Source of the DNA: an uncultured Gammaproteobacteria bacterium
GTDB lineage: Bacteria; Patescibacteriota; Microgenomatia; Levybacterales; GWA1-39-11
DNA length: 64,000 nucleotides
Reading direction: 5' to 3'
Assembly: GCA_964596415.1 (NCBI GenBank)
Contig: CAZQSX010000001.1
Coordinates: forward strand, 37,508-101,507
Part shown: positions 36,382-62,731 of the stretch, in pieces
Layout of the letters: every line of letters begins with the position of its first letter
How positions within the stretch are numbered: position 1 is the stretch's first letter
Notes under the pieces: generated by a model
Told to the model about the DNA's origin: nothing
The model's input: only the letters and a program-made list of their open reading frames with translations
The model's database searches: none
Position numbers and translations under genes: made by a program

Positions 36382-36425
36382 TGACAAATTAGCAGTTAAT
36401 ATGCTAGACTGCTAATGTATAAATT
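36382..36425 (+). promoter_or_regulatory. hsp20 promoter with embedded CIRCE-like operator: -35 TTGACA, TTAGCA-gttaatatgctagac-TGCTAA, -10 TATAAAT
   Basis: The inverted repeat TTAGCA-N15-TGCTAA has exactly the spacing of the canonical CIRCE (TTAGCACTC-N9-GAGTGCTAA) and lies between the -35 and -10 boxes. Confidence 0.65.
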
Positions 36426-36587: not shown

Positions 36588-37022
36588 ATGGCAATTATAA
36601 GATGGAATCCTTGGAATATAGATCGCTTCTTTGAAGACGATTTTGACATGCCGACCATTCCTGGTGTATCTAGGCTTATGGGTCAAGGTCTTAATATCTA
36701 TGAAACAGAAAGTGCAGTAGTTGCAGAAGCAGCACTTCCTGGAATACAGGAGGATAAAGTAGACGTGACTTTCGAAGATGGAGTGGTTCGAGTAAGTGCA
36801 TCAATGGAAGATAATAAGGAAGAAAAAGATAAAAGACGATATTTTATGTCTTCTATGTCTACTTCCTTCAACTATTCATTTAAGGTTCCAACAGGGATTG
36901 TTCAGGATAAGGAACCAGAGGCAGAGCTGGAAGATGGTGTTCTGAAACTTACATTCAAAAAGATTGAAAAGAAAGAACCCAAGAAAATTAAAGTTACTAA
37001 AAAAGCAAAAGTTTTAAAATAG
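36588..37022 (+). CDS. Hsp20/alpha-crystallin small heat-shock protein
   Basis: MAIIRWNPW...DRFFEDDF N-terminus, an alpha-crystallin domain (VDVTFEDGVVRV ... AELEDGVLKLTF), and a basic C-terminus. Confidence 0.9.
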   Translation: MAIIRWNPWNIDRFFEDDFDMPTIPGVSRLMGQGLNIYETESAVVAEAALPGIQEDKVDVTFEDGVVRVSASMEDNKEEKDKRRYFMSSMSTSFNYSFKVPTGIVQDKEPEAELEDGVLKLTFKKIEKKEPKKIKVTKKAKVLK

Positions 37023-47035: not shown

Positions 47036-47073
47036 CTTGACACCAATTAGCAGTCGTGGTATATTATTGCTAA
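47036..47073 (+). promoter_or_regulatory. hrcA promoter region with CIRCE-like operator TTAGCA-gtcgtggtatattat-TGCTAA preceded by TTGACA
   Basis: Outer half-sites are perfect with a 15-nt spacer. Lies in the pyrB/hrcA divergent intergenic region. Confidence 0.6.
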
Positions 47074-47124
47074 TCCTTCGACTCGCTCTGTTTGCTCAGG
47101 ACAAGCACAAGGATTTTTAATACC

Positions 47125-47850
47125 ATGTATGATTTGACACCACGCCAAGTAGATATCTTAAAGCTTATTGTCAAGGAGTATATAGATAATGCAGAGCCTG
47201 TTGGCTCTGAAACCCTTGAAAAAAAATATGATATTGGGGTTTCACCCGCAACTATCAGAAATGAGATGGCAGAGATGGTGAAGCTTGGATATCTTTCAAA
47301 ACCTCATACATCAGCTGGTCGAATACCTTCTACAAAGGCATTAAAGCTTTACATAAATGAGCTTATGCGTGAAAAAGAAATTTCAGTAGCTGATGAAGTT
47401 CAAGCAAAAGAAAAAGTGTGGGATTATAGGGCAACACGAGATAAGTTTTTGCGCGAAGTTACAAAAAATTTAGCCCAAAAAACACATTCGCTTGCGGTTA
47501 CAACTACTTCTGAGGGAGATATTTATTATGCAGGATATGGAAATATTTTGGAGATGCCTGAATTTTACGATATTGATATAGCAAAAAATTTTCTTACCCT
47601 TCTTGATAATACTTCTTGCTTTGAAAGCATCATTGAACGTATGGAAAACGATTTTGGAATTTTTTTGGGTGATGAGTTAGGGAGCGAGCTGTATAAACCA
47701 TACAGTTTTATTTTTAGTAGATTTGATGTAAAATCTCATCAATGTCAGGGTTCAATTGGAGTGGTAGGTCCAGCTAGAGTAAGGTATGATTCGCTTGTAC
47801 CAACCGTTAAATTTTTTGGAGGGCTTATAGAAGACGTTGCTGAATGGTAG
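47125..47850 (+). CDS. hrcA: heat-inducible transcription repressor HrcA (short form, ~241 aa)
   Basis: N-terminal wHTH LTPRQVDILKLIVKEYIDNAEPVGSETL...SAGRIPSTKALKLYINELM. C-terminal GSIGVVGPARVRYDSLVPTVKFFGG is HrcA-like. Confidence 0.85.
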   Translation: MYDLTPRQVDILKLIVKEYIDNAEPVGSETLEKKYDIGVSPATIRNEMAEMVKLGYLSKPHTSAGRIPSTKALKLYINELMREKEISVADEVQAKEKVWDYRATRDKFLREVTKNLAQKTHSLAVTTTSEGDIYYAGYGNILEMPEFYDIDIAKNFLTLLDNTSCFESIIERMENDFGIFLGDELGSELYKPYSFIFSRFDVKSHQCQGSIGVVGPARVRYDSLVPTVKFFGGLIEDVAEW

Positions 47851-47897
47851 GATTTGAAACAGTAGTTTTAGAAGTTATAATTTATAATTAAATTCAG

Positions 47898-48443
47898 ATG
47901 GATAAGAAAAATAAGCAAAGCTTGCGACCCTCAGATGAGTCTGAAGGTCTAAAGAAACATGAAGAAACAACAGAAGAATTTGAAGAGGAGCTTGATCAGG
48001 AAGAGCACGTAGGAGAGGAACAAGAGGAGTCAGAAGCAGATGCTAGGGTAAAAAACTTAGAGGATCAATTAAAGCGGGCAGTTGCAGATTATCGTAATCT
48101 TGAAAATAGGGTGCAGGAGGAACGGATTGAGTTTGTAAAATTTGCAAATAAAAATTTGTTAGAAAATTTACTTCCTGCTTTTGACACAATAATTTTGGCC
48201 TCTCAATATTCTGAGGACCAGAACTTGCAAGTGACCGTAAAGTATTTACTTGATATTTTAAAGCAGGCAGGAGTAGAAAAAGTAGAAACAATTGGTCAGA
48301 AATTTGACCCGGTGACCATGGAGGCAATTGAGGTTATTGCGGGAAATGAAGGAGAGGTTGTAGAAGAGTCTCAGCCAGGATTTACACTGCATGGTAAGAT
48401 ATTAAGACCTGCGAGAGTAAAAGTGGGAAGGGAGAAGGAGTAA
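47898..48443 (+). CDS. grpE: nucleotide exchange factor GrpE
   Basis: Acidic N-terminus, long coiled coil (LKRAVADYRNLENRVQEERIEF), and a C-terminal beta-domain (GKILRPARVKV). Confidence 0.85.
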   Translation: MDKKNKQSLRPSDESEGLKKHEETTEEFEEELDQEEHVGEEQEESEADARVKNLEDQLKRAVADYRNLENRVQEERIEFVKFANKNLLENLLPAFDTIILASQYSEDQNLQVTVKYLLDILKQAGVEKVETIGQKFDPVTMEAIEVIAGNEGEVVEESQPGFTLHGKILRPARVKVGREKE

Positions 48444-48530
48444 GAAAAAACTATAATTTAAAATTTTTAATTTCTCATGAATTTTTAAAAGTGATTGAAA
48501 ATTTAAGATTTATAATTTAAAATTAAACCT

Positions 48531-50462
48531 ATGTCTAAAATTATTGGTATTGATTTAGGAACAACAAATTCATGCGTTGCTGTTATGGAAGCAGGCACGC
48601 CTAAGGTTATTTTTTCTGCTGAAGGTAGAAATGTTACTCCTTCTGTGGTTGATCCAGTTGATCGTGTTGTGGGAGATGTGGCAAAGCGTCAAATGGTTTT
48701 AAAGCCAAAAAGAATAATTTTCTCCATAAAAAGACTCATGGGAAGACGTTTTAAAGATAAGGAAGTGCAAGATGATTTAAAGCTTCTTCCGTATACCATA
48801 GAGGCAGGAAAAGAAGGCATGGCGATAGTTGAAGTAGAGGGTAAAAAATATACTCCAGAGGAAATTTCTGCAATGATTTTAACAAAGCTTAAAAATGACG
48901 CAGAATCATACTTGGGTGGAAAAGTAACACAAGCAGTTATTACAGTTCCAGCATATTTTGATGATTCTCAGCGTCAAGCAACAAAACAAGCAGGAGAAAT
49001 TGCTGGACTTGAGGTGCTTCGAATAGTAAATGAGCCAACAGCAGCGGCACTTGCCTATGGGCTTGATAAAAAACATGCGCATACCATTGCAGTTTATGAC
49101 ATGGGAGGCGGAACATTTGATATTTCTATACTTGAACTTGGTGAAGGAGTATATGAAGTAAAAGCAACAAATGGAGATACCCATTTAGGTGGAGATGATT
49201 TTGATCAAAAAATAATTGATTATATTGCTGATGAATTTAAAAAAGAAAATAGTATTGATTTGCGAAAAGATTCTCAGGCACTTCAAAGACTCAAAGAAGC
49301 AGCAGAAAAAGCAAAAATTGAACTTTCAACTTCTCAAGAGGCAGAGATTAACCAACCGTTTATAACACAAGGCGCAAATGGTCCGCTTCATCTAACCATG
49401 AAGTTAACGCGTAGCAAGCTTGAAAGCATCGTAGGTGAGTTAATAACAAACTCCTTTAAGCCAGTTGAGGCAGCCTTGAAAGATGCTGGAATGGATGCAT
49501 CTAAAGTAGATGAGGTGATTTTAGTAGGAGGTATGACGCGTATGCCAAAAATTGTTGAAGAAGTTGGAAAGTTCTTTGGAAAAGAACCAAATAAATCTGT
49601 CAATCCTGATGAGGTTGTTGCGGTTGGAGCAGCTGTTCAGGCAGGAGTTTTGGGTGGAGACGTGAAAGATGTACTGCTTTTAGATGTAACACCATTGACA
49701 CTGGGGATAGAAACATTAGGAGGAGTTGCAACGCCATTAATAAATCGCAATTCAACAATCCCTACTAAAAAATCTCAAGTATTTTCAACAGCTGCTGATA
49801 ATCAGACTCAGGTTGAAATTCATGTAGTTCAAGGGGAACGACCAATGGCTGCCGACAACAAGTCATTGGGTAGATTTATTTTAGATGGAATTCCACCAGC
49901 GCCCCGTGGTGTTCCCCAGGTTGAAGTGACCTTTGACATAGATGCTTCAGGACTTTTATCAGTTACCGCAAAGGATAATGCTTCAGGAAAAGAGCAAAGC
50001 ATTAAGATAACCGGTGGAACTGGTTTGTCAAAAGAAGAGGTTGAGAAAATGACAAAAGAAGCAGAAATGAATGCTGCTGAAGATGAAAAGAAAAAAGAAA
50101 TGATTGAAGTGAAAAACCGCGCGGATGGACTGATCTTTACTGCAGAAAAATCCCTTAAAGACTTGGGGGATAAAGTGCCCGCAGATTTGAAAACAGACGT
50201 TGAAGCAAAAATTGAGGCGCTAAGAGAAGCGCTGAAAGGTGATGATAAAGAGGCAATTGAAGCAAAAACAACAGAACTTTCAGAGCATCTCTCAAAAATA
50301 GGTGAACAGATGCAGCAGCAGCCAGGAGGACAGCCTGGAGCCGAACAGGCATCAGGGGAAACAGCGGGAGAACAGGCTGAGACTTCTTCAGAAGAAAACG
50401 GAGAAAAAAAAGAAGAAACGAAAGATAAAGACGAAGCAGTTGAAGGTGAAGTGGTGAATTAG
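48531..50462 (+). CDS. dnaK: molecular chaperone DnaK (Hsp70)
   Basis: [22 protein letters not shown], and an acidic C-terminal tail. Confidence 0.95.
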
Positions 50463-51784: not shown

Positions 51785-52075
51785 ATGGAATGTGCTGTTA
51801 ATGAGGTGGCAACAGATTTAGGTTGTCTACCTAATGATCCTGTTGGATTTATTCAAAAGTTTTATGGTATTGGCCTGTCACTTATTGGCATGGTTGCATT
51901 ACTATTTCTCATTTATGGAGGGTATCATATTTTAACCTCTGGTGGAAATTCCGAACAACTTCAAAAAGGAAAAGAATATATCTATTATGCTATAGCAGGA
52001 TTATTGCTTGCTATTTTTGGATTTGTTTTTGTGCAGTTTATTGCTGCAGGATTAAGAATTCCCGGATTTTCGTAA
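51785..52075 (+). CDS. small two-TM protein resembling the TrbC/VirB2-type T4SS pilins common in CPR-like genomes
   Basis: Two Cys near the N-terminus (CAVNEVATDLGCLPNDP). Helix 1 IGLSLIGMVALLFLIYGGYHILTSGGN, a short polar loop (EQLQKGKE), then helix 2 YIYYAIAGLLLAIFGFVFVQFIAAGL. No cleavable signal peptide. Confidence 0.5.
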   Translation: MECAVNEVATDLGCLPNDPVGFIQKFYGIGLSLIGMVALLFLIYGGYHILTSGGNSEQLQKGKEYIYYAIAGLLLAIFGFVFVQFIAAGLRIPGFS

Positions 52076-52086
52076 AAGGTAACACT

Positions 52087-54345
52087 ATGTATAAAAAACT
52101 GCCCATTTTTATAACCTGTTTTATATTTGTAAGCATACTTTTCTTTGGATTTGTCAAAAGTGTTTTCGCTCAGACAACAACAACTTCTGTTACTCCAACG
52201 CCTGAATTAATACAAGAAATTCAGCAAAGTTTTCCAGGTCTTCCTATAGATATTCCAGATTTAACTAATCCATCTGGAGGGCTTCCGATTGGAACAAGTC
52301 CAGTTGCTGAGGGCACTTGGGTTTCTGATTCAAATGTAACGTTTGTTGGAAAAACCGCATCTCGGTCAGGAGATTTTCTTGATTGGACTTTAAGAAATTA
52401 TGATTGGGCATGTGCTACAAAAAATGCAAATGGGTCATGTTCTAACCAAGGAAATCCACTTGTTGGGTTTTGGGCTTTAATTAGAAATATTGTGTACGCA
52501 CTTCTTATAGCAGTTGTACTTGTTGCAGCATTTGTCATGATTATAACTCGCGGAAGAAGCATTACCGTTATGCGTTTTATTCCTCGATTTATCTTTATTC
52601 TTGTTCTTGTGACTCTTTCGTATTCCTTGATACAGTTTATTTATCAAATAACAGATATTATAACTGGTTTTTTTCTTAGAGTAAGCGGATCTCTTATTTC
52701 AACAAAAGATTTAATTTTTATAGGATTTAACTATCAGACTTTTGAGGGTTTAAGGCTAGCTGGTTCAAAGTATGACGAGTCTGCGTTTATAACGCTTTTA
52801 TTAGTCAGGCTTACTGCCATAACGTATTATGTTATGACAGGGATTCTTCTTATTAGAAAAATTATTCTTTGGTTTTTTATAGTACTTTCCCCTATTTTCC
52901 CTCTTTTATTTTTCTTTAGGCCCGTAAGAAATACAGGAAAAATTTGGATAGGAGAATTTTTTAGATGGTTATTATATGCGCCGCTTTTCGCAATCTTTTT
53001 GCATGGATTGGTTGTTTTATGGAGTAGTGGAAGTCCTGATAAACCAGGAATTCCACTTGCTTTTGATTTGACAAGTCCAGGGCGCATTCCAGGTGTTGAG
53101 GCAAATGTTGTATATCCAACTGCCGTGAACATATTAATTGGTGGTCCAGGTCAGCAAATTGGAATTTATAATTCAGTTAATCTTCAGGACACATTTGCGC
53201 TTTATGTTGTTGCTCTTCTTATGCTTTGGGTTGTGATACTTCTTCCATTTATCTTACTTAAAATCTTCTTAGACTATCTGACTAATATTTCGCTTAAGGA
53301 TAATGTAACGCTTCAGAAGATGTGGGATAGGGGTATGGCGCCATTTAATCCAAAACCACCTTCTCCTGCGACCCCACCAATAGTTCCACCACCTGCTACA
53401 ACAGGGCTTGCAAAGTCTTTGCCATTTGCAGCAGGAATTTCTAGAACATTAAATCAAACAAAAAACATCACAGAAAATAAGACTGTTAATCAAGCTATGT
53501 CTAGTCCTGTAAATACGCAAATTCTCCAACTCTCAAATCTCTCAATTCCAAAAATGAGAGATATCGCAAAGTTTGAGACTTCTATGGTTTCAAAAGATAC
53601 AACTCGTCAACACGAAGTTAATAGATTAAAGACTTCACTTTCAAGAATTGCGAATCCAAGCTCAGTTCAAAGCGCATCAGAAAGAGATCGTTACACGCAG
53701 GTGAAACATCAGTTGACACAAGAAAAACAAAAAGGTAACGCTTTGGCTTCATCTATTCTTTCCGCAGCAAACACAACAAATCAGGCTTCCCGCGCTCATG
53801 TACCTGGGCAAAAAATTGCAGCCGTAGCAAATCTTCCAACTGTTAATAGGGTTCAGCAGGTTTCACTTGAAGATTATGAGGAGGTTAGAAAAATGTGGGT
53901 TGAAACATATCAATCATCAGAGCCCCCAACTGATCTAGCAGGAAAACAGGCAAATCGTGAAGAATGGATTAAGGGTGATATTGATAAGATTAATCAAGCA
54001 ATTACGCTTCTATCATCTATTGATCCAAGTCGTTCACAAGAAGGGATGGATATGGTTTCAAATATTTTGCCATTTCTAATGGTTGGAGGATTTTCAAAAA
54101 CTGAAGTTATAGCATACCTAAAAGCAAAACTTGAAGCAGCAAAGCAGGTAATGTCAGACACTAATAAAAAGAAAGAGGATGAGGAGGGTATGGTTGAAAG
54201 AGCCACTGGAACAACAACCGCTGAAAAACATATGACAATGGAAGCAGAAGCAAAAATTCCAGATGAAGAAGCGCCTAAAAAAACATTTGATACCCCTGAA
54301 GATGGTCAAGCAAAAATTGACGATTTGAGAAAAACAGGAGTGTAG
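52087..54345 (+). CDS. signal-peptide-bearing polytopic membrane protein (6 TM) with a long C-terminal hydrophilic domain; VirB6/TrbL-like topology
   Basis: SP MYKKLPIFITCFIFVSILFFGFVKSVFA, a Thr-rich N-terminal exodomain, six hydrophobic helices between about aa 125 and 400, and a C-terminal domain of about 350 aa rich in polar residues. Confidence 0.45.
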   Translation: MYKKLPIFITCFIFVSILFFGFVKSVFAQTTTTSVTPTPELIQEIQQSFPGLPIDIPDLTNPSGGLPIGTSPVAEGTWVSDSNVTFVGKTASRSGDFLDWTLRNYDWACATKNANGSCSNQGNPLVGFWALIRNIVYALLIAVVLVAAFVMIITRGRSITVMRFIPRFIFILVLVTLSYSLIQFIYQITDIITGFFLRVSGSLISTKDLIFIGFNYQTFEGLRLAGSKYDESAFITLLLVRLTAITYYVMTGILLIRKIILWFFIVLSPIFPLLFFFRPVRNTGKIWIGEFFRWLLYAPLFAIFLHGLVVLWSSGSPDKPGIPLAFDLTSPGRIPGVEANVVYPTAVNILIGGPGQQIGIYNSVNLQDTFALYVVALLMLWVVILLPFILLKIFLDYLTNISLKDNVTLQKMWDRGMAPFNPKPPSPATPPIVPPPATTGLAKSLPFAAGISRTLNQTKNITENKTVNQAMSSPVNTQILQLSNLSIPKMRDIAKFETSMVSKDTTRQHEVNRLKTSLSRIANPSSVQSASERDRYTQVKHQLTQEKQKGNALASSILSAANTTNQASRAHVPGQKIAAVANLPTVNRVQQVSLEDYEEVRKMWVETYQSSEPPTDLAGKQANREEWIKGDIDKINQAITLLSSIDPSRSQEGMDMVSNILPFLMVGGFSKTEVIAYLKAKLEAAKQVMSDTNKKKEDEEGMVERATGTTTAEKHMTMEAEAKIPDEEAPKKTFDTPEDGQAKIDDLRKTGV

Positions 54346-54438
54346 ACGAAAGCCTAAGAAATAGCTACATTGTTATAATAGTTAAATAGTTTATAATTAT
54401 TCTAGCCATTTAGCTATTTTTAACTAATTATTATTTTT

Positions 54439-57204
54439 ATGTTTGGTAATTTATTTTCTGTAAAGCATGACGCACAACAAGATAGCGGACAATCACAAGT
54501 TGTATCTGCTGGGACTACTATGAGTATTGGCGAGCAACCTGTTCATAGTACAAATATTTCCATAAATAGTAATCCATTAAACGTTCCACCTTCTCAACAG
54601 CCAGTTGTAGATCCTTCAGTTGGACAAGGAGGCATGGATCCTCAAAAACGCCAGAACCTTTTTGCCATGAGTAAGCTTGACCCACGAACTATTCAGGTTT
54701 TGCATCATGCACAAGAAGAAACAAAACGAATTGCCCAGCAATTTATTGGTCCGGAGCAGCTTTTAATAGGAATGTTTTATGACGGTGAGATTTTTAAAGT
54801 TTTCCAAAACTTTAATGTAGATGTAGCAAAGTTAACACGTGAAATCCAAACAAAAGAAGTAAGTGGGAGTTTTACCGGAGAACCCACATTATCTGATTCT
54901 GTTAAGCATATTTTTGAAGAGGCCTACACGGCAGCACAGGGAAGAGGGGCAGATTTTGTTTCTCCGGAAGATGTACTCGTTTCACTATTTTCACAACCAG
55001 TAACTTCTGAATTTTTAAAATCTTTTGGAGTAGAAAAGCAAAAATTGGAAGAAAACCTATCTAAATCTTCAGGTTATTCTGCTTCCAGAAAATCAGTATT
55101 AGATAAGTATGGAATAGATTTAACAAAAGAGGCGCGTGACGGAAAATTAGATCCTATTACGGGACGCGATAAAGAAACTGAGCGACTGATTCATATTTTA
55201 CTTCGAAGAACTAAAAACAACCCAATTATTATTGGTGAGGCAGGAGTTGGAAAAACTGCCATAGTTGAAGCGCTTGCGCAAAAAATTGTGCAAGGCTCTG
55301 TCCCTCACGATTTATTAAACAGAAAAATTATTCAGCTTGAATTATCATCTTTGGTAGCAGGCGCATCCCATAGAGGTGAATTTGAAGAGCGACTTCAAAA
55401 TGTCATCAAAGAAGCGCAAGCATCAGCTGGTCAGATAATTTTATTTATTGATGAAATTCATACGCTTATAGGAACTGGTGATACACAAGGCGCAATGGAT
55501 GCATCCAATATAATAAAGCCGTACTTAGCGCGTGGTCAATTACAATTAATAGGAACAACAACAACTTCAGAATATAGAAAATATTTTGAGAAAGATAAAG
55601 CTTTTGAAAGGCGGTTTCAGGCAGTTCTTGTTGAAGAACCATCAGAAGAAGTAGCAATGCAAATGCTTGAAGCGCTTAAGGCAAAATATGAGAAATATCA
55701 TCAAGTTGTTATTACCCCTCAAGCAATTGAGGCGGCTGTTAAGCTTTCTAAAAAATATATTGGTGAAAGATATCTTCCTGATAAGGGTGTAGATTTACTA
55801 GACGAGGCAGCGGCTGAAGTGAAACTCCAACATACTGAAGGAAAACGACCGGATAACCAAGTGGTGAAAGCAGATATTGAAAAAGTTGTATCTGCCTGGA
55901 CAGGAATACCAATAACAAAACTTACTGAAGATGAATCTGCAAAGCTTATTAATCTGGAGGATACAATTCATAAACGGTTTATTGACCAGGCAGAAGCTGT
56001 AAAAGCTGTGGCAGAAGCTGTAAGGCGCGGAAGAATTGGACTTGCTCCAGGAAATAGACCAATCGCATCCTTTATTTTCTTGGGACCAACAGGAGTTGGA
56101 AAAACAGAACTTGCAAAAACACTTGCTGAAATATTATTTGGTCGCGATGACCTCATGATTCGACTTGATATGTCTGAATATATGGAGAAGCACGAGGTAG
56201 CAAAACTTATCGGTGCTCCTCCTGGGTATGTGGGATATGAAGAAGGGGGTCAATTAACTGAAGCAGTGAGAGCAAAACCGTACTCCATAGTTCTTCTTGA
56301 TGAAATAGAGAAAGCACACCCTGATGTTTTTAATATACTCTTACAGCTTCTTGAAGACGGAAGACTGACTGACAATAAGGGAAATACTATTTCATTTAAA
56401 AATACAATTGTTATTGCCACATCAAATATTGGATCAGCTCTTATACAACAACAACTTCTTGCGTCGCAAAAAGATGGAACAAAAACAGCTGTAACAGAAG
56501 AAGATGAGAAGAAAAAATATGAAGCGCTTTCAAAGACACTTATGGATGAACTCCGAAAATTCTTTAAGCCTGAGCTTTTGAATCGTTTTGATGATTTAGT
56601 TATGTTTAAACCACTTCGTCAGCAAGATATGGCACAAATTGCAAAGTTAGGAATTGCCAAAACAAAAAAACTTTTGAAAGATCAAGAACTTGATTTGCAA
56701 ATATCAGATTCTGCTCTTCAAGTTTTGGCGAAAGAAGGATATGATCCGGTTTATGGAGCCAGACCTTTGAGACGTCTTATTCAATCCGCAATAGAAAACC
56801 CGATTGCTATTTTAATAATAAATAAAACATTTGTTCCAAAAGACACTATTCTTATTGATTATGATACTGCAAAAACTGAGTTTACATTTAAGAAAACAAC
56901 TCCTCCTCAGCCGTTAGTTCCGGGTCAGTACCCGCCTGGGGCTCAACCTCAACAAAGCGTTACAGGTATGAATCAAAACGGACAAGCGTTACAGGGTCAG
57001 CCAGTTATTGCAAATGGTATGTCATCTCAGGCAGGAAACCAAGCAGTACCAGGTGGATCTCAAGGAGGCGGTGGTATATTAACAAGTATTGCACAGGAAC
57101 ATACAGCAACTACTCCTCCAGCTGCTTCTCCTTCGTCTCCGACGTCTTCACAGAATCCGCCTCCCGTGATAGGCACAGATGGTACTGCCATGCAAAGAGC
57201 ATAA
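54439..57204 (+). CDS. Hsp100/Clp double-AAA+ ATPase (ClpC-like) with Q/P-rich N- and C-terminal low-complexity tails
   Basis: Clp_N repeats ([17 protein letters not shown]; EDVLVSLF). D1 Walker [13 protein letters not shown] and Walker [10 protein letters not shown]2 Walker [13 protein letters not shown], Walker [15 protein letters not shown], and a sensor. Short D1-D2 linker with no long M-domain. C-terminal ~130 aa Q/P/G/S-rich. Confidence 0.85.
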
Positions 57205-57225: not shown

Positions 57226-59019
57226 ATGCATAAGGTTCGTAAGATTCTTCAGATTCAAGGAAAATTGGCTTATTCATTTTTACTACTCGGTATAGGAATT
57301 GGGATAGTGCTCATTCTTTTATATTTCTTTTTTTCAAGCAGAATTGCGGCAGAAAATGTCAGAACAGAAATATTTCCAGAAGGAGCAAGATATGCAAAAA
57401 ATCAAATAATTGTTAAATATAGATCAGGTTTTTCTCCACATGTATTAAACGCGCAAAACAAAAAACAAGACTTAGATCTTCTTGAAAATAAGCTAAAAAG
57501 TATTGGGGTTATTTCTCAAAATCGATTGTTTATTTCAGATAATATATTGCTTGAAAATTATTACATTTTAAATTTGCCTCAGGATAGTGATATTTTTCAG
57601 GTTTACACAAAGCTTTCAAAATTTTCAGAAATTGATGCAATCACCCCAGATTACATCTTAAGTGTTCAGGAGGTTCCTGATGATCCGGCGTATTCCTCTC
57701 TTTGGGGACTTTCTGAAATTTCAGCACCGAAAGCTTGGGATATTAAAAATGGGAAGAGTAATGTAATAGTAGGAATTGTTGATACTGGAGTTGATTTGAA
57801 TCATGAAGACTTGAAGGGAAACGTAATAAAAGGTGTAAATACTGTTGATGAAACTCGTGATCCTTCAGATGATCACGGGCATGGGACGCATGTTGCGGGA
57901 ACAGTTGGTGCAATCACTAATAATGCAATTGGAATTTCCAGTATTTCTTGGGGCGCAAAGCTATTGGCAATAAAAAGTTGTGATGAAAATGGAGATTGTA
58001 AAACCTCAGATGTATCAAAAGGTATAAAATACGCAATAGATAACGGCGCAAAAATTGTAAATGTGAGTGTTGCGGGTGAAGGGAGTTGTCGGGGTACATA
58101 TGATGATATGAGTAAATATGCAAAAGAAAAAAATGTACTACTTGTTGTTGCTGCCGGAAATGGAATAAATGGGAGAGGAGTAGATGCGAGAAAATGGATA
58201 CCTGCCGGATGTAATGATATATTTACTATTGGTGCGTTTGGTCCGTCTGGAGATCGGGCTCCATATTCAAACTATGGGAATGTTTTGTCTATGTCAGCTC
58301 CAGGAGGAGATAGGGGTTCAGAGGCGTGTACAGAATCAACTTGCATCTTATCAACCAGCAATAACAATACATACTCGCTTCGTCAAGGTACTTCTATGGC
58401 GGCGCCTCAAGTAAGTGGAGCCGCAGCGCTTTTGTTATCATATAATCCATTACTTTCTGTTAGTCAGATTCGCTCGTGCTTGATTCAAGGCGGAGATGTC
58501 TTAACAACTGATAAATACATTGGAAAAAAATTAAACACCCAAAAAGCGCTTATGAGATGTGCGCCCATTGCATCTCCTACGCCTATTCAGAAAGTTGAGG
58601 ATTCTGGAAACTTATCTATTTCTGGCATTGTATATGCAGATGAAAATAATGATAAGTCTTTTGACTCAAATGAGATGCCAATTGTTGGTGCACAGGTTAT
58701 ACTTTCAGGATATGATTCACAAAGTGTTCTCTCAAATTCTACTGGTCGTTATATCTTTCCAGATTTAAAACCTGGTTTTTATACGATTTCAGTTTCAGTA
58801 GGCGGTCAAAGCGCGGGAGATTTGTATGATGTTTCGCTTCTCAAGTTATTTCCAAATGTACAAATAGATCTTCCTATTTCCTCTGAGTATATACCTTCAC
58901 CTACTCAGGATCAAAATCCAAAACCAACCCAGCAAGCATCCAGTATTCAATGTGTCCCTGACCCTGCTTGCGAATCTGCTGAGGGAAGTATTCAAATCTG
59001 CTCGCTGAAATGTGAATAA
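57226..59019 (+). CDS. secreted subtilisin-family (S8) serine protease with I9-like propeptide and C-terminal SdrD-B/Cna-B-like domain
   Basis: N-terminal TM/signal. Catalytic triad motifs VGIVDTGVD (Asp), HGTHVAGTVGA (His), GTSMAAPQVSGAAALL (Ser). C-terminal GIVYADENNDKSFDSNEMPIVGAQVILSGYD...GRYIFPDLKPGFYTISV. Confidence 0.9.
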   Translation: MHKVRKILQIQGKLAYSFLLLGIGIGIVLILLYFFFSSRIAAENVRTEIFPEGARYAKNQIIVKYRSGFSPHVLNAQNKKQDLDLLENKLKSIGVISQNRLFISDNILLENYYILNLPQDSDIFQVYTKLSKFSEIDAITPDYILSVQEVPDDPAYSSLWGLSEISAPKAWDIKNGKSNVIVGIVDTGVDLNHEDLKGNVIKGVNTVDETRDPSDDHGHGTHVAGTVGAITNNAIGISSISWGAKLLAIKSCDENGDCKTSDVSKGIKYAIDNGAKIVNVSVAGEGSCRGTYDDMSKYAKEKNVLLVVAAGNGINGRGVDARKWIPAGCNDIFTIGAFGPSGDRAPYSNYGNVLSMSAPGGDRGSEACTESTCILSTSNNNTYSLRQGTSMAAPQVSGAAALLLSYNPLLSVSQIRSCLIQGGDVLTTDKYIGKKLNTQKALMRCAPIASPTPIQKVEDSGNLSISGIVYADENNDKSFDSNEMPIVGAQVILSGYDSQSVLSNSTGRYIFPDLKPGFYTISVSVGGQSAGDLYDVSLLKLFPNVQIDLPISSEYIPSPTQDQNPKPTQQASSIQCVPDPACESAEGSIQICSLKCE

Positions 59020-60012: not shown

Positions 60013-60342
60013 ATGGGGATTCTGCTCTATCCTATTGCTGTGGTTCTGTTTTGGTACAAAGATGGTGCTTTCGCGCTTTTATTATATTTTCGTTCTTTGA
60101 ACGATTATTGCATTAGGCTTTTTTCCCTCCCAGGTTTATTTGTAACTTTTTTTAGACCTCTTAAGAATGAATATAGAAAAAATTTAGTAGTATTCTCTAT
60201 TTTATTCGGAATGATTGTTAAGACATTTTTAGTTATTGCTTCTCTTGGAGTACTTGCGGCGCTTTTTGCGTTAGAGGTTTTAATTTTTGTTTCCTATATA
60301 CTTTTTCCTATTTTACCGATTTTAGTTTTATTCTATGTCTAG
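60013..60342 (+). CDS. small membrane protein (109 aa, ~4 TM); possible N-terminal module of the downstream Hsp100-like gene (8-nt overlap, +1 frame)
   Basis: Hydrophobic ORF whose stop overlaps the start of 60335..62731. Confidence 0.45.
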   Translation: MGILLYPIAVVLFWYKDGAFALLLYFRSLNDYCIRLFSLPGLFVTFFRPLKNEYRKNLVVFSILFGMIVKTFLVIASLGVLAALFALEVLIFVSYILFPILPILVLFYV

Positions 60343-62731
60343 ATATTTATTTTTATACTATCAGATTAACAACACGCTTCTTGCGCGAGTGATTCGCTTA
60401 TTTTTCTTAGTGGGTGGGTTTATTGGAGTATTTTTTATAAGCACAAATACAGAAGTTTTTAAAATTGTGCTAATCTTCTACTCTTATTTTATTCTTCATG
60501 AAATTTTTATTCACTTTCATGTAGATAAAGCATTTCCGTATATAAAAGTCATTGATAATCCGCAGCAGATTTTAGATACAGTTCTTTTTAAAACAAGAAA
60601 AAAATATGTATCTGGAAAAGATGGACTGAAAGTTATTCAAAAAATTATGCATGATAAGGATGTTGAATTTATGATACAAAAAATAGGCGGTTTTAAGATA
60701 GATAATTTTTCTATTCCAAAAGATGAAATCTTAAAGAAAGCATTCGAATTAGTTTTAGAGATAAAAGGTGCTTATATTACTTCTGCAGATATGTTTACCG
60801 CTTATCTTTTACTTACTGAACTTCAGACGAAAATATTGCAAGAAAAAGAGTTGACGGAAAAAGATTTACTGGAAATATTAATATGGACACGTCAAGAATT
60901 TCATCTTGAACAGCCCAGAAAACAGGTTTTGCATTTTACCGGGTATGGGGTTTTTGATTTCTTTATCTACGGTTGGGATACATATATAAAGGAGTTTGCA
61001 TATGACATTACGTATTCTGTCTTAGGTAAGAAAGCATACCCAATTGTTGGTCGAGAAAAAGAATTTAATGAACTGACTGAAATCCTTTCAAAATCAACAG
61101 TAAATAACGCATTACTGGTGGGTGAGACGGGTGTTGGAAAAACATCACTTGTTTATAGGCTCGCTCTTGAATCATATCGTGATCCACGTTTTATTTTGGG
61201 ACATCGAAAAGTATATGAGGTAATGGTAGATAGATTACTTTCTGGTGTAAATTCATCAAGCGATTTAGAATCTCGGCTTGGATTGTTATTCGCTGAGGTT
61301 AATCATTCTGGAAATATTATTTTGTTTTTTCAAAATATTGAAAATATTTTTGGTGGAGGAGGTTTTGGGTTTGACATGTCTGGAATTCTATTTGAGTATT
61401 TAAAAAACGGAAGCATTCAAATTATCGGAAGTACTACGCCTGGATCCTACAAGGAAATTATAGAAAAAAAACAAAGCATTTTGCATTTATTTGAAAGAGT
61501 TTCTATTCAAGAACCAGAAAGAGAGCAAGTGTTTGAGATGATTGCGTCACATATTCCGGTAATAGAACACGAGTATGGAGTTTCTATTTCATACAAAGCA
61601 ATTCACGATGCTACAGAACTTGCATCTTCATATTTTCCAGATCAGGTATTGCCAGGAAAGGCGATAAACCTATTAACAGATGTTGCGGCAAAAGTAAGAC
61701 ATAGTGGTGGAAAAACTGTTGATAAAGATGATGTGGTAGCGGTAGTTCAGGAAAAAACAAATATTGTATTAGAGAAGCCATCAGATGAGGAGAAGGATAC
61801 ACTGCTTCATTTAGAGGAGCAAATGCATAAGCGTGTTATCGGACAAGAAGATGCGATAACAGCAGTTGCCAAAGCGATTCGACGACTCAGGTCTGGTTTC
61901 ACACAGCATACACGTCCTATTTCTGTATTTCTCTTTTTAGGTCCAACTGGAGTTGGAAAAACAGAAACTGCAAAGACGCTTGCCGATCTTTATTTTGGAG
62001 ATGAAGCTCATATGATTCGACTTGATATGTCTGAATACCAAACCCAGAATGAGGTAGAAAGGTTATTGGGAGGTTTGCCTGGGGGTGAAGAAATTTCTGG
62101 TTCACTACCTGATCAGGTTCATGAACATCCCTTCTCTTTGATTTTACTTGATGAATTTGAGAAGGCACATCCGCATATATTAGACATATTCTTACAAGTT
62201 TTTGAAGATGGAAGACTTACTGATAATCAAGGGAAAACTGTTTCATTTAAAAATACTATTATTATTGCTACTTCAAATGCAGGATCTGAAACAATTCGCG
62301 AGATGGTTGGAGGAGGGATGGATATAAGCACTGAGAAGAATAAAATTATAGATGGGCTGCTACAATCTGGAATTTTTAAACCAGAACTTTTAAATCGTTT
62401 TGACGATGTAATAATTTTTCAGCCGTTAACAGTAGAGGATGCAAAGCAAATTGCTGAATTATTAATAAAAACTTCTCTTCAGGCATTAGAAAGTGACCAG
62501 ATATATCTTACGTTTGATGAAAAAGTGATAAATAAGGTAGTTACTGAATCATTTGATGTGGAGGCAGGAGCTCGGAATATGAGAAGGTATATTGGAGCAG
62601 AGATTGAAGATTTCATTTCTCAGCTTATCTTAAAAGACCAGCTTCCTGCAGGGGTGCACGCGATGCTTTCAACTGATGATAACAATAAATTTATTTTAAT
62701 AAATGAAAAAGAGGTTGTAGCAGAAGCATAA
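60335..62731 (+). CDS. membrane-anchored Hsp100/Clp-family double-AAA+ ATPase paralog with degenerate D1 Walker B
   Basis: Two N-terminal TM helices. D1 Walker A GETGVGKTS is intact, but Walker B reads IILFFQNIENIF (the canonical h-h-h-h-D-E is replaced by Q-N). D2 Walker [13 protein letters not shown], Walker B LILLDEFEKAHPHI, and sensor-1 ATSNAGS are intact. Confidence 0.8.
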   Translation: MSRYLFLYYQINNTLLARVIRLFFLVGGFIGVFFISTNTEVFKIVLIFYSYFILHEIFIHFHVDKAFPYIKVIDNPQQILDTVLFKTRKKYVSGKDGLKVIQKIMHDKDVEFMIQKIGGFKIDNFSIPKDEILKKAFELVLEIKGAYITSADMFTAYLLLTELQTKILQEKELTEKDLLEILIWTRQEFHLEQPRKQVLHFTGYGVFDFFIYGWDTYIKEFAYDITYSVLGKKAYPIVGREKEFNELTEILSKSTVNNALLVGETGVGKTSLVYRLALESYRDPRFILGHRKVYEVMVDRLLSGVNSSSDLESRLGLLFAEVNHSGNIILFFQNIENIFGGGGFGFDMSGILFEYLKNGSIQIIGSTTPGSYKEIIEKKQSILHLFERVSIQEPEREQVFEMIASHIPVIEHEYGVSISYKAIHDATELASSYFPDQVLPGKAINLLTDVAAKVRHSGGKTVDKDDVVAVVQEKTNIVLEKPSDEEKDTLLHLEEQMHKRVIGQEDAITAVAKAIRRLRSGFTQHTRPISVFLFLGPTGVGKTETAKTLADLYFGDEAHMIRLDMSEYQTQNEVERLLGGLPGGEEISGSLPDQVHEHPFSLILLDEFEKAHPHILDIFLQVFEDGRLTDNQGKTVSFKNTIIIATSNAGSETIREMVGGGMDISTEKNKIIDGLLQSGIFKPELLNRFDDVIIFQPLTVEDAKQIAELLIKTSLQALESDQIYLTFDEKVINKVVTESFDVEAGARNMRRYIGAEIEDFISQLILKDQLPAGVHAMLSTDDNNKFILINEKEVVAEA

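Follow-up and report, generated by a model that had tools for sequence, protein, structure and literature searches.

An M-domain-less, ClpC-derived Hsp100 of the candidate phyla radiation, lacking the ClpP-docking loop, as a candidate ATPase of a VirB2-like pilin/VirB6-like envelope module

The function of Hsp100 unfoldases is usually read from what is added to their ATPase rings, the middle domain (M-domain) standing for control by Hsp70 or by adaptors, and the ΦGF loop for coupling to the peptidase ClpP. What such a motor might serve when both additions are missing is the question raised by a gene, hereafter Clp, of contig CAZQSX010000001.1 (GCA_964596415.1), more precisely of the 64,000-nucleotide stretch that was analysed here as a whole and is called the window. 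The organism is placed in the Levybacterales, within the Patescibacteria or candidate phyla radiation (CPR). Since a large and conserved CPR-specific family, to which Clp belongs, has neither M-domain nor ΦGF loop but keeps a perfect motor, a third mode of coupling must exist. We propose that Clp would be the cytoplasmic ATPase of an envelope module built from the VirB2-like pilin and VirB6-like membrane protein that are encoded beside it, an assignment that we rate as falling just short of even and that derives from sequence and gene order.

The open reading frame (ORF) of Clp had been delimited in an earlier note written from the bare letters of this DNA, and was recovered at exactly the same place, with 921 residues; an identical protein (P0001) is encoded on a 113-kb NCBI contig. 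The double-AAA+ architecture with Clp_N repeats and with intact Walker A and B motifs in both rings, also described in that note, agrees with the Pfam domain order, namely two Clp_N, AAA (first ring, D1), AAA_lid_9, AAA_2 (second ring, D2) and ClpB_D2-small, as well as with the residues that are invariant in a family alignment of 91 sequences. These comprise the Walker A lysines K272 and K555, the Walker B pairs D338/E339 and D621/E622, the sensor-1 N663, the arginine fingers R391/R392 and R716, and the sensor-2 residues R775/R778. The AlphaFold model has a confident core, with a mean predicted local distance difference test score (pLDDT) of 74. In sequence, Clp is thus a threading ATPase with both rings intact and with a D2 pore loop of the canonical kind.

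The first of the two missing couplings, the M-domain, was assessed against a reference panel of about 70 canonical ClpCs from other phyla, obtained by a protein-based contig scan whose yield was dominated by the universal DMSEYMEK pattern, together with ClpA and ClpB of E. coli. The two Walker A motifs of Clp are spaced by 283 residues, close to the 281 of E. coli ClpA and well short of the 337 of the canonical ClpCs and the 399 of E. coli ClpB. The ClpB hidden Markov model (HMM) matches Clp in two separate parts, the second of which begins at profile position 525, and the ClpA HMM matches it as a single continuous stretch. In the alignment with S. aureus ClpC, residues 427-468 of the latter are skipped, and in the AlphaFold model of Clp a helix (residues 448-467) is followed directly by D2 elements, with no coiled-coil insertion. 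A protein search with Clp returned thousands of relatives, of which the best 120, 60-100% identical and 800-1215 residues long, belong, where named, to Levybacteria, Microgenomates and other Patescibacteria; the length of the linker between D1 and D2 is constant in 119 of them. The short linker without a ClpB-type M-domain, noticed earlier by eye, therefore holds, and so does the view that this is not a classical ClpB, its score with the ClpB model TIGR03346 being 893 bits for a cutoff of 1232.

The second coupling is equally absent. The ΦGF tripeptide at the tip of the D2 P-loop of ClpC docks into the H-site of ClpP; in S. aureus ClpC it corresponds to AGF, residues 671-673, and the G672D/F673D mutation of this tripeptide destroys ClpC-ClpP binding (PMC12521514). 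In the alignment, this AGF falls opposite A675-S676-Q677 of Clp, in a P-loop that is, throughout the family, a hypervariable low-complexity insert of about 10 to more than 100 residues. A hydrophobic-G-hydrophobic tripeptide was found in the D2 P-loop of 2 of the 120 homologs, whereas [ILVMF]GF is present in about 60 of the 70 reference ClpCs. The IGL at residues 533-535 was rejected as a ClpP loop, given that it belongs to the conserved D2 element RRGRIGL (RRARAGL in ClpC) and not to the P-loop. The lack of a ClpP-docking tripeptide claimed in the earlier note is thus borne out, and the alignment that it had suggested in search of an overlooked IGF/VGF-type loop or full M-domain revealed neither in Clp. 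The labels under which the homologs are found in public databases, 'ATP-dependent Clp protease ATP-binding subunit/ClpC', imply a partnership with ClpP for which the sequence gives no support.

Losing the M-domain, the P-loop tip and the tyrosine of the D1 pore loop, with a clearly degenerate Clp paralog nearby, is also what could be expected of a decaying or purely regulatory remnant devoid of threading function. This explanation is very improbable: 60-80% identity is kept across hundreds of CPR genomes of minimal gene content, and there is no variation in any of the catalytic residues or in the D2 pore loop.

The D1 pore loop is a hallmark of the family. It reads AGASHR in 107 of the 120 members and KYR in 51 reference Hsp100s, so that histidine replaces tyrosine across the family, and the GYVG loop of D2 is canonical. 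Neither this change nor the conserved motifs at the ends of the tails had been noticed in the earlier note. Over 695 gap-free columns, the core of Clp shows 48-50% identity with ClpCs, 48% with E. coli ClpB and 38% with ClpA, and in a simple and admittedly crude neighbour-joining tree the CPR sequences form a clade of their own beside ClpC and ClpB. Among solved structures, the closest in sequence is S. aureus ClpC (697 bits), and the top Foldseek matches are ClpC-ClpP complexes. A family-specific signature used in a metagenome scan yielded 80 further loci with three gene orders and recovered a second CPR lineage, type B, with the same S-H-R pore loop. In type B, the Walker A spacing is 338-339, reflecting an M-domain of ClpC length, compared to 282-285 in type A, the branch of the window. 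Type B proteins (from loci among L091-L169, for example L095, L119 and L165), of up to 1760 residues, further show a conserved N-terminal MxxFFDFIKK, analogous to the N-terminal motif of the window type, insertions in the D2 loop of up to about 395 residues that mostly lack the tripeptide, and a C-terminal CxxC...CxxC element resembling a zinc ribbon.

Because this sister lineage keeps a ClpC-length M-domain, the window branch would be ClpC-derived, and type A is best read, from these comparisons, as a ClpC-derived lineage which lost the ΦGF tip first and the M-domain afterwards, its ClpA-like spacing being convergent. An ancestry from ClpA was rejected despite the nearly identical ring spacing, in view of the 38% identity and of the M-domain of the sister lineage. 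Several matches to the S-H-R pattern were excluded from the family as being ClpE-like (MICENCGKRQ, with VGF present) or ClpB-like (spacing of 403). The resulting CPR 'S-H-R' Hsp100 clade is a grouping defined in this analysis, and all its traits are present in the window Clp, namely AGASHR, an N-terminal hydrophobic motif on a disordered linker, an expanded D2 loop without tripeptide, and a pilin or VirB6-like neighbour. Two other Hsp100s deserve mention: that of a Fervidobacterium metagenome-assembled genome (MAG) outside the CPR (L058; spacing 276, 737 residues) has neither ΦGF nor M-domain, and the ClpC-like one of a Saccharibacteria MAG (L053; spacing 338) reads K-H-R in the D1 pore loop and is without the tripeptide.

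The tails of Clp are the other conspicuous feature of the protein. Q, N, P, G, S and T make up 57% of residues 1-76 and 69% of residues 821-921, the latter being 16% proline, about 20% Q plus N and only 3% charged, and the pLDDT is below 50 over residues 1-65 and 826-921. The Q/P/G/S/T-rich low-complexity tails of the earlier note are therefore real, and its estimate of about 70 residues suits the N-tail; the C-tail, in contrast, has about 100 residues and not about 130. In the family, the N-tail varies from 55 to 149 residues and the C-tail from 56 to 176, and both carry conserved motifs. M1, G3, N4, L5 and F6 are nearly invariant in the family alignment, and this conservation of the extreme N-terminus shows that the length of the N-tail does not come from an over-extended ORF. 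In the C-tail, an internal motif (GILxDIAxEH in close relatives, EPVYGxDNNG in others) was found in 29 of 63 homologs, and a G-T-Q-M-Q-like motif, 2-11 residues before the C-terminus, in 48 of 63. The label 'prion-like' had to be abandoned in view of the proline content, the modest share of Q plus N, the hypervariable length and the conserved end motifs: this is the pattern of what would be flexible tethers bearing docking peptides, and amyloid-prone Q/N domains do not fit it. Whether the N-terminal motif might form an amphipathic membrane-targeting helix was addressed by calculating the hydrophobic moment, which is 0.21 for type A (0.30 when shuffled) and 0.47 for type B (0.30 when shuffled), the MinD and MinE control peptides being low as well.

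What these tails might hold on to is suggested by the genes around Clp. A pilin, a VirB6-like protein and Clp are encoded contiguously in the window, as they are in five further genomes whose Clps are 60-70% identical; in these five relatives, dnaJ moves and the class of the downstream peptidase changes (S8, M4, M64-like), and in locus L089 the trio stands alone, with neither hrcA nor dnaK nearby. A VirB6-like gene lies upstream of Clp in six of seven inspected genomes. Among the 80 signature-selected loci, type A has the order pilin-TrbL-Clp-...-paralog, type C the order Clp-pilin (in several copies)-TrbL, and type B has Clp followed by the pilin, with envelope genes upstream on the opposite strand. 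In several type B loci the ATG of the pilin overlaps the stop codon of Clp by 4 nt, so that pilin and Clp are translationally coupled there. Overall, at least one pilin or VirB6-like ORF lies within 5 kb of Clp in 39 of 45 CPR loci, and such ORFs, at 2.5 per 10 kb near Clp, thin out to 0.32 per 10 kb in the remainder of these loci. The two genes adjacent to Clp are the only matches in the whole 64-kb window, and none was found in the 1.35 Mb around the non-CPR ClpCs. The 'stand-alone' character attributed to this unfoldase in the earlier note is hard to reconcile with so recurrent a linkage, seen in three gene orders and accompanied in some loci by translational coupling and in one sublineage by the gene fusion described below.

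The VirB6-like protein scores 21.0 bits with the Pfam TrbL model, below the cutoff of 25.9. The top eight PDB matches of its AlphaFold model are nevertheless all TrwI/VirB6 of plasmid R388, at a probability of 0.66-1.00 and a target template-modelling score of about 0.5, the E-values of 0.02-1.2 being weak. The repeat of its C-terminal region, termed VirB6-type, was detected by HMM in 120 of 120 TrbL-like proteins and in none of the 120 closest Clp homologs. However, in one sublineage (L088, L118, L141 and L147), four copies are fused to the C-tail of Clp, giving proteins of 1387-1431 residues, and in BLASTP the fused repeats match the VirB6-like protein of the window (E=1e-7) and that encoded next to Clp in L088 (1e-16). 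The fusion is a link of the Rosetta-stone type between Clp and the VirB6-like protein.

Taken together, these data argue for Clp as the ATPase of the pilin/VirB6-like module because the motor is intact while both the M-domain and ΦGF couplings are lost, because the synteny is conserved, survives rearrangement and is accompanied by translational coupling, enrichment and repeat fusion, and because the VirB6-like model matches TrwI/VirB6, conserved motifs tip hypervariable linkers in both lineages and no clpP was found in 862 kb. In terms of mechanism, the terminal motifs on their disordered arms would hold the Clp hexamer at the cytoplasmic face of a VirB6-like platform, as would the fused VirB6-type repeats in one sublineage, and the hexamer so positioned could pull on, unfold or extract polypeptides, either pilin subunits or exported cargo. 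In the Microgenomatia arrangement, where the module lies beside hrcA-grpE-dnaK-dnaJ, its output may be coordinated with Hsp70. Parallels exist, as ClpV serves the type VI secretion system (T6SS), VirB4 dislocates pilin in classical type IV secretion systems (T4SS), and HSP101 feeds the pore of the Plasmodium translocon of exported proteins (PTEX). The broader claim, that the CPR turned a ClpC-type unfoldase into a dedicated, tail-tethered motor of a minimal, VirB4-less, T4SS-derived pilin/VirB6-like apparatus that threads or extracts pilin or cargo, is more tentative, and we would give it rather worse than even chances.

Several points weigh against this assignment. The evidence for a functional link of Clp with the module is genomic throughout. 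The P-value of the enrichment is inflated by the relatedness of the loci and by a pilin HMM trained on matches near Clp, the effect being nonetheless large, and no pilin or VirB6-like gene was detected in three informative CPR-type loci (L098, L115 and L160). In a further locus (L090, GCA_964512695.1), a VirB6-like gene is followed by two S8 peptidase genes without any Clp, so that the VirB6-like protein and secreted peptidases may be linked independently of Clp. The hydrophobic segments of the VirB6-like protein (a signal peptide and six others), when naively counted, place its C-terminal repeats outside the cell. By analogy, the fusion of these repeats to a cytoplasmic ATPase would rather put them in the cytoplasm, as would the topology reportedly established for VirB6 of A. 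tumefaciens. Moreover, Patescibacteria already encode a VirB4-based T4SS at another place in their genomes, and a second motor is not obviously required (PMC12102498). Finally, the window Clp also sits in a chaperone neighbourhood, which is compatible with a general role in proteostasis.

This last point leads to another explanation, the one favoured by the earlier note, in which Clp would belong to the heat-shock system as a general unfoldase or disaggregase independent of ClpP. Misfolded or aggregated substrates would be threaded by it and then refolded by DnaK/DnaJ/GrpE, and its tails would bind aggregates or partners in the way of the N-domains of ClpG and ClpL. Its motor is intact, and Clp lies in an hrcA-grpE-dnaK-dnaJ cluster in the window and in four other genomes. 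The operator of the type controlling inverted repeat of chaperone expression (CIRCE) at the hrcA promoter and a CIRCE-like site ahead of an Hsp20 gene point to an active HrcA regulon. The ΦGF tripeptide is absent from ClpB, ClpG and ClpL too, and ClpG likewise has a disordered C-terminal extension, but every characterised bacterial disaggregase, that is ClpB, ClpG and ClpL, has an M-domain (PMC11006417) and Clp has none. At the level of the locus, no CIRCE was found upstream of Clp at up to 3 mismatches, and a strong terminator (50591) follows dnaK, with two small + strand ORFs and another ORF running in the opposite direction between it and the pilin. Furthermore, L089 and all type B and type C loci keep their pilin/VirB6-like neighbours without chaperone genes nearby, and neither the translational coupling of the pilin nor the VirB6-repeat fusion is accounted for. 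A general disaggregase is an unlikely though serious explanation, and it is not mutually exclusive with a role of Clp in the pilin/VirB6-like module.

A contact with ClpP by other means also has to be considered. ClpX was lost on the CPR stem (bioRxiv 10.1101/2020.07.15.205187), and of 49 Antarctic single amplified genomes (SAGs) about 20 are scored as having ClpP (K01358) and not one as having ClpX (K03544) (PMC12361377), these 49 columns, mostly of the <0.2 µm fraction, being taken as the Patescibacteria set of that study. As CPR bacteria commonly keep ClpP, the absence of ΦGF is not simply the sign of a ClpP-less lineage, and some Hsp100 may have to serve ClpP through another contact. Yet the ΦGF tip is missing from the CPR Hsp100s examined, i.e. 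type A, most of type B and the ClpC-like protein of L053, leaving the puzzle of lineages without ClpX that keep ClpP with no ΦGF-bearing partner among the sampled Hsp100s. Clp might thus be a ClpP-activating unfoldase that docks through its C-tail motifs or through the N-terminal [F/L/I]-G-N-L-F instead of the D2 loop. HslU, PAN and Mpa dock on their peptidases by C-terminal tails with conserved end motifs, and some homologs of Clp have [VI]-[YF]-G-[YFA] in the C-tail. We regard such a docking as improbable: the tail motifs of the window Clp are not hydrophobic-Gly-aromatic tripeptides, the mid motifs of the C-tail occur in under half of the homologs, and the N-terminal motif lies on the ring face opposite to the ClpP side. 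Besides, a ClpP query verified as identical to annotated E. coli ClpP found no clpP in the window or in the 862 kb of about 90 family loci, and neither mecA, mcsB nor clpP was recognised among the window ORFs scanned, MecA and McsB/pArg being adaptors that ClpC binds at its N-terminal domain or M-domain when working with ClpP. Whatever its partner, the family bears on how ClpP is fed in a superphylum that lost ClpX.

The coordinates of Clp and of its neighbours are gathered in Table 1. Downstream of the S8 peptidase come dnaJ, a small membrane ORF and the Clp paralog. The slot directly after Clp keeps a signal-anchored peptidase of varying class, S8, M4 or M64-like (window, L001, L003 and L004). 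The paralog starts with about 65 very hydrophobic residues, forming two putative transmembrane helices, instead of Clp_N; the Walker B motif of its D1 is degenerate (FFQNIENI) and its D2 pore loop, GGLPGGEE, is without the GYVG tyrosine. It recurs downstream of Clp in type A loci (L001, L003, L088, L094, L111, L118, L121, L141, L147, L149 and L152) and may act either as a membrane anchor or as a partner in hetero-oligomers. In at least seven other loci, an ORF of 108-117 residues homologous to the small membrane protein (...FWY.EAP...F.PWKNEYR.GLV.FS...) precedes the paralog. Around the promoter-like site of Clp, a perfect 9-bp inverted repeat, AAATAGCTA (54359..54367) and TAGCTATTT (54411..54419), could be an operator or a chance occurrence in AT-rich DNA.

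Elsewhere in the window, two CIRCE-like operators were found with 3 mismatches each, 0.02 being expected by chance: that of hrcA (Table 1) and one at 36389..36415, which precedes the Hsp20 gene (36588..37022). Between 38923 and 47046, mostly on the - strand, lies an apparent set for de novo pyrimidine synthesis, with the small and large chains of carbamoyl-phosphate synthase, aspartate carbamoyltransferase, a dihydroorotase-like amidohydrolase and a dihydroorotate dehydrogenase-like protein. This set is unexpected in that the CPR superphylum is usually described as lacking nucleotide biosynthesis (PMC10633639).

Table 1. Clp, its parts and the neighbouring features in the window (positions of the 64,000-nucleotide stretch; residue numbers are those of the encoded protein)
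Feature	Position	Strand	Remarks
CIRCE-like HrcA operator	47047..47073	+	overlaps hrcA promoter (operator and promoter together 47037-47073)
hrcA-grpE-dnaK unit	47092-50462	+	headed by the CIRCE-like operator; upstream of the pilin/VirB6-like/Clp module
VirB2-like T4SS pilin	51785..52075	+	96 aa, two hydrophobic segments; Pfam PF18895, 31.3 bits (cutoff 26.6)
VirB6/TrbL-like polytopic membrane protein	52087..54345	+	752 aa; directly upstream of Clp
Repeat module of VirB6-like protein, residues 502-568	53590..53790	+	C-terminal region, after membrane domain; helical repeat of ~85 aa
Promoter-like site TTGTTA-16-TATAAT	54370..54397	+	inside the 93-bp gap upstream of Clp
Clp gene	54439..57204	+	921-aa CPR-type Hsp100, probably ClpC-derived; no M-domain, no ClpP loop
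N-terminal motif M-F-G-N-L-F, residues 1-6	54439..54456	+	M[FLI]G[NS]LF in 113/120 homologs
Disordered N-terminal linker, residues 7-76	54457..54666	+	hypervariable in family
Clp_N domain, ~residues 77-215	54667..55083	+	Pfam PF02861 in two stretches; alignment starts at ClpC residue 4; pLDDT >90
D1 AAA+ ring and lid	55084..55848	+	Walker A GEAGVGKT and Walker B ILFIDEIH, both intact
D1 pore loop S310-H311-R312	55366..55374	+	K-Y-R in ClpA/B/C
D1-D2 junction, residues 463-478	55825..55872	+	site of the coiled-coil M-domain of ClpC/ClpB; M-domain absent
D2 AAA+ ring	55936..56598	+	Walker A GPTGVGKT, Walker B and pore loop GAPPGYVGY all canonical
Degenerate P-loop region, residues 667-697	56437..56529	+	no ΦGF; low-complexity insert, hypervariable in family
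D2-small domain and terminal beta-hairpin, residues 726-820	56614..56898	+	Pfam PF10431
Disordered P/Q/G-rich C-tail, residues 821-921	56899..57201	+	from composition and AlphaFold
C-tail motif, residues 879-888	57073..57102	+	common to close relatives; EPVYGxDNNG at same relative position in more distant ones
Near-C-terminal motif D-G-T-A-M-Q, residues 914-919	57178..57195	+	family G-[TSAV]-x-[ML]-[QAMS]
Secreted or anchored subtilase (S8)	57226..59019	+	downstream of Clp
Conserved small membrane protein	60013..60342	+	109 aa, no family match; end overlaps paralog start by 8 nt
Membrane-anchored Clp paralog	60335..62731	+	798 aa; 39% identical to main Clp; no M-domain

How the window Clp compares to the known systems can now be considered, bearing in mind that it stays below every NCBIfam equivalog cutoff (ClpB, ClpA, ClpV, ClpG and ClpK). 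It resembles ClpC by its Clp_N domain and two AAA+ rings, by the core identity given above, and by the minimal D2 loop of the family, whose 37 residues fit ClpC and not ClpB, but it differs from it by the shorter ring spacing, the missing M-domain and ΦGF, the D1 histidine, the long disordered tails with their end motifs, the vicinity of pilin/VirB6-like genes instead of clpP, and a separate clade in the neighbour-joining tree. With ClpA it shares the absence of an M-domain and an almost equal spacing, whereas the core identity is low, the TIGR02639 score is 717.6 bits for a cutoff of 993.15, the IGL loop is missing, and the M-domain appears to have been lost secondarily within a ClpC-like clade. 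As for ClpB/Hsp104, the lack of a ClpP motif, the position beside dnaK, dnaJ and grpE and the core identity of about 48% are common to both, but Clp has the D1 histidine, scores 892.7 bits with TIGR03346 (cutoff 1232.1) and, without M-domain, has no known docking site for Hsp70. ClpG, ClpK and ClpL also lack the IGL/F motif, and ClpG has a disordered C-terminal extension, yet all of them keep an M-domain and specialised, folded aggregate-binding N-domains (PMC11006417); with the ClpG and ClpK HMMs, Clp reaches 684 and 703 bits, for cutoffs of 1900. In other words, every characterised ClpP-independent bacterial Hsp100 (ClpB, ClpG/K, ClpL) has an M-domain and ClpA has IGL, while the window family has neither.

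On the side of the presumed partners, the VirB4-based T4SS of Patescibacteria, which is monoderm and MPF-FATA-like, likewise comprises VirB2-like PF18895 pilins and VirB6-like proteins, but its clusters centre on virB4, often near dnaA (PMC12102498), and neither the window nor the flanks retrieved contain a virB4. Microgenomatia are rich in pilin arrays (PMC12102498), and T4SS pilins are essential in Southlakia, the one genetically tractable CPR bacterium, where they are needed for the epibiotic lifestyle (PMC10633639). Clp or AAA+ neighbours go unmentioned in the papers dealing with T4SS pilins and VirB6 in Patescibacteria (PMC12102498, PMC10633639), and no account of this family or of its pilin link was found in the literature on Clp, ClpB, ClpC and ClpX in Patescibacteria. 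The module may therefore bear on how monoderm CPR cells assemble their T4SS pilins.

The closest functional analogy that we propose is with ClpV (TssH) and with HSP101 of the Plasmodium PTEX, both of them Hsp100s without ClpP motif that are dedicated to an envelope or secretion machine, the reasoning from gene neighbourhood being the same as for ClpV. Clp is nonetheless distinct from ClpV, with 697.5 bits for the 884.95 of the TIGR03345 cutoff, no T6SS genes among its neighbours, VirB2-like and VirB6-like proteins as partners, and a partnership that is proposed here from the genes. The family is accordingly a variant within the Hsp100/ClpC superfamily; if its proposed partnership were confirmed, it would be new in kind, pairing an Hsp100 with a pilus or secretion apparatus in a manner comparable to ClpV with the T6SS or HSP101 with PTEX.

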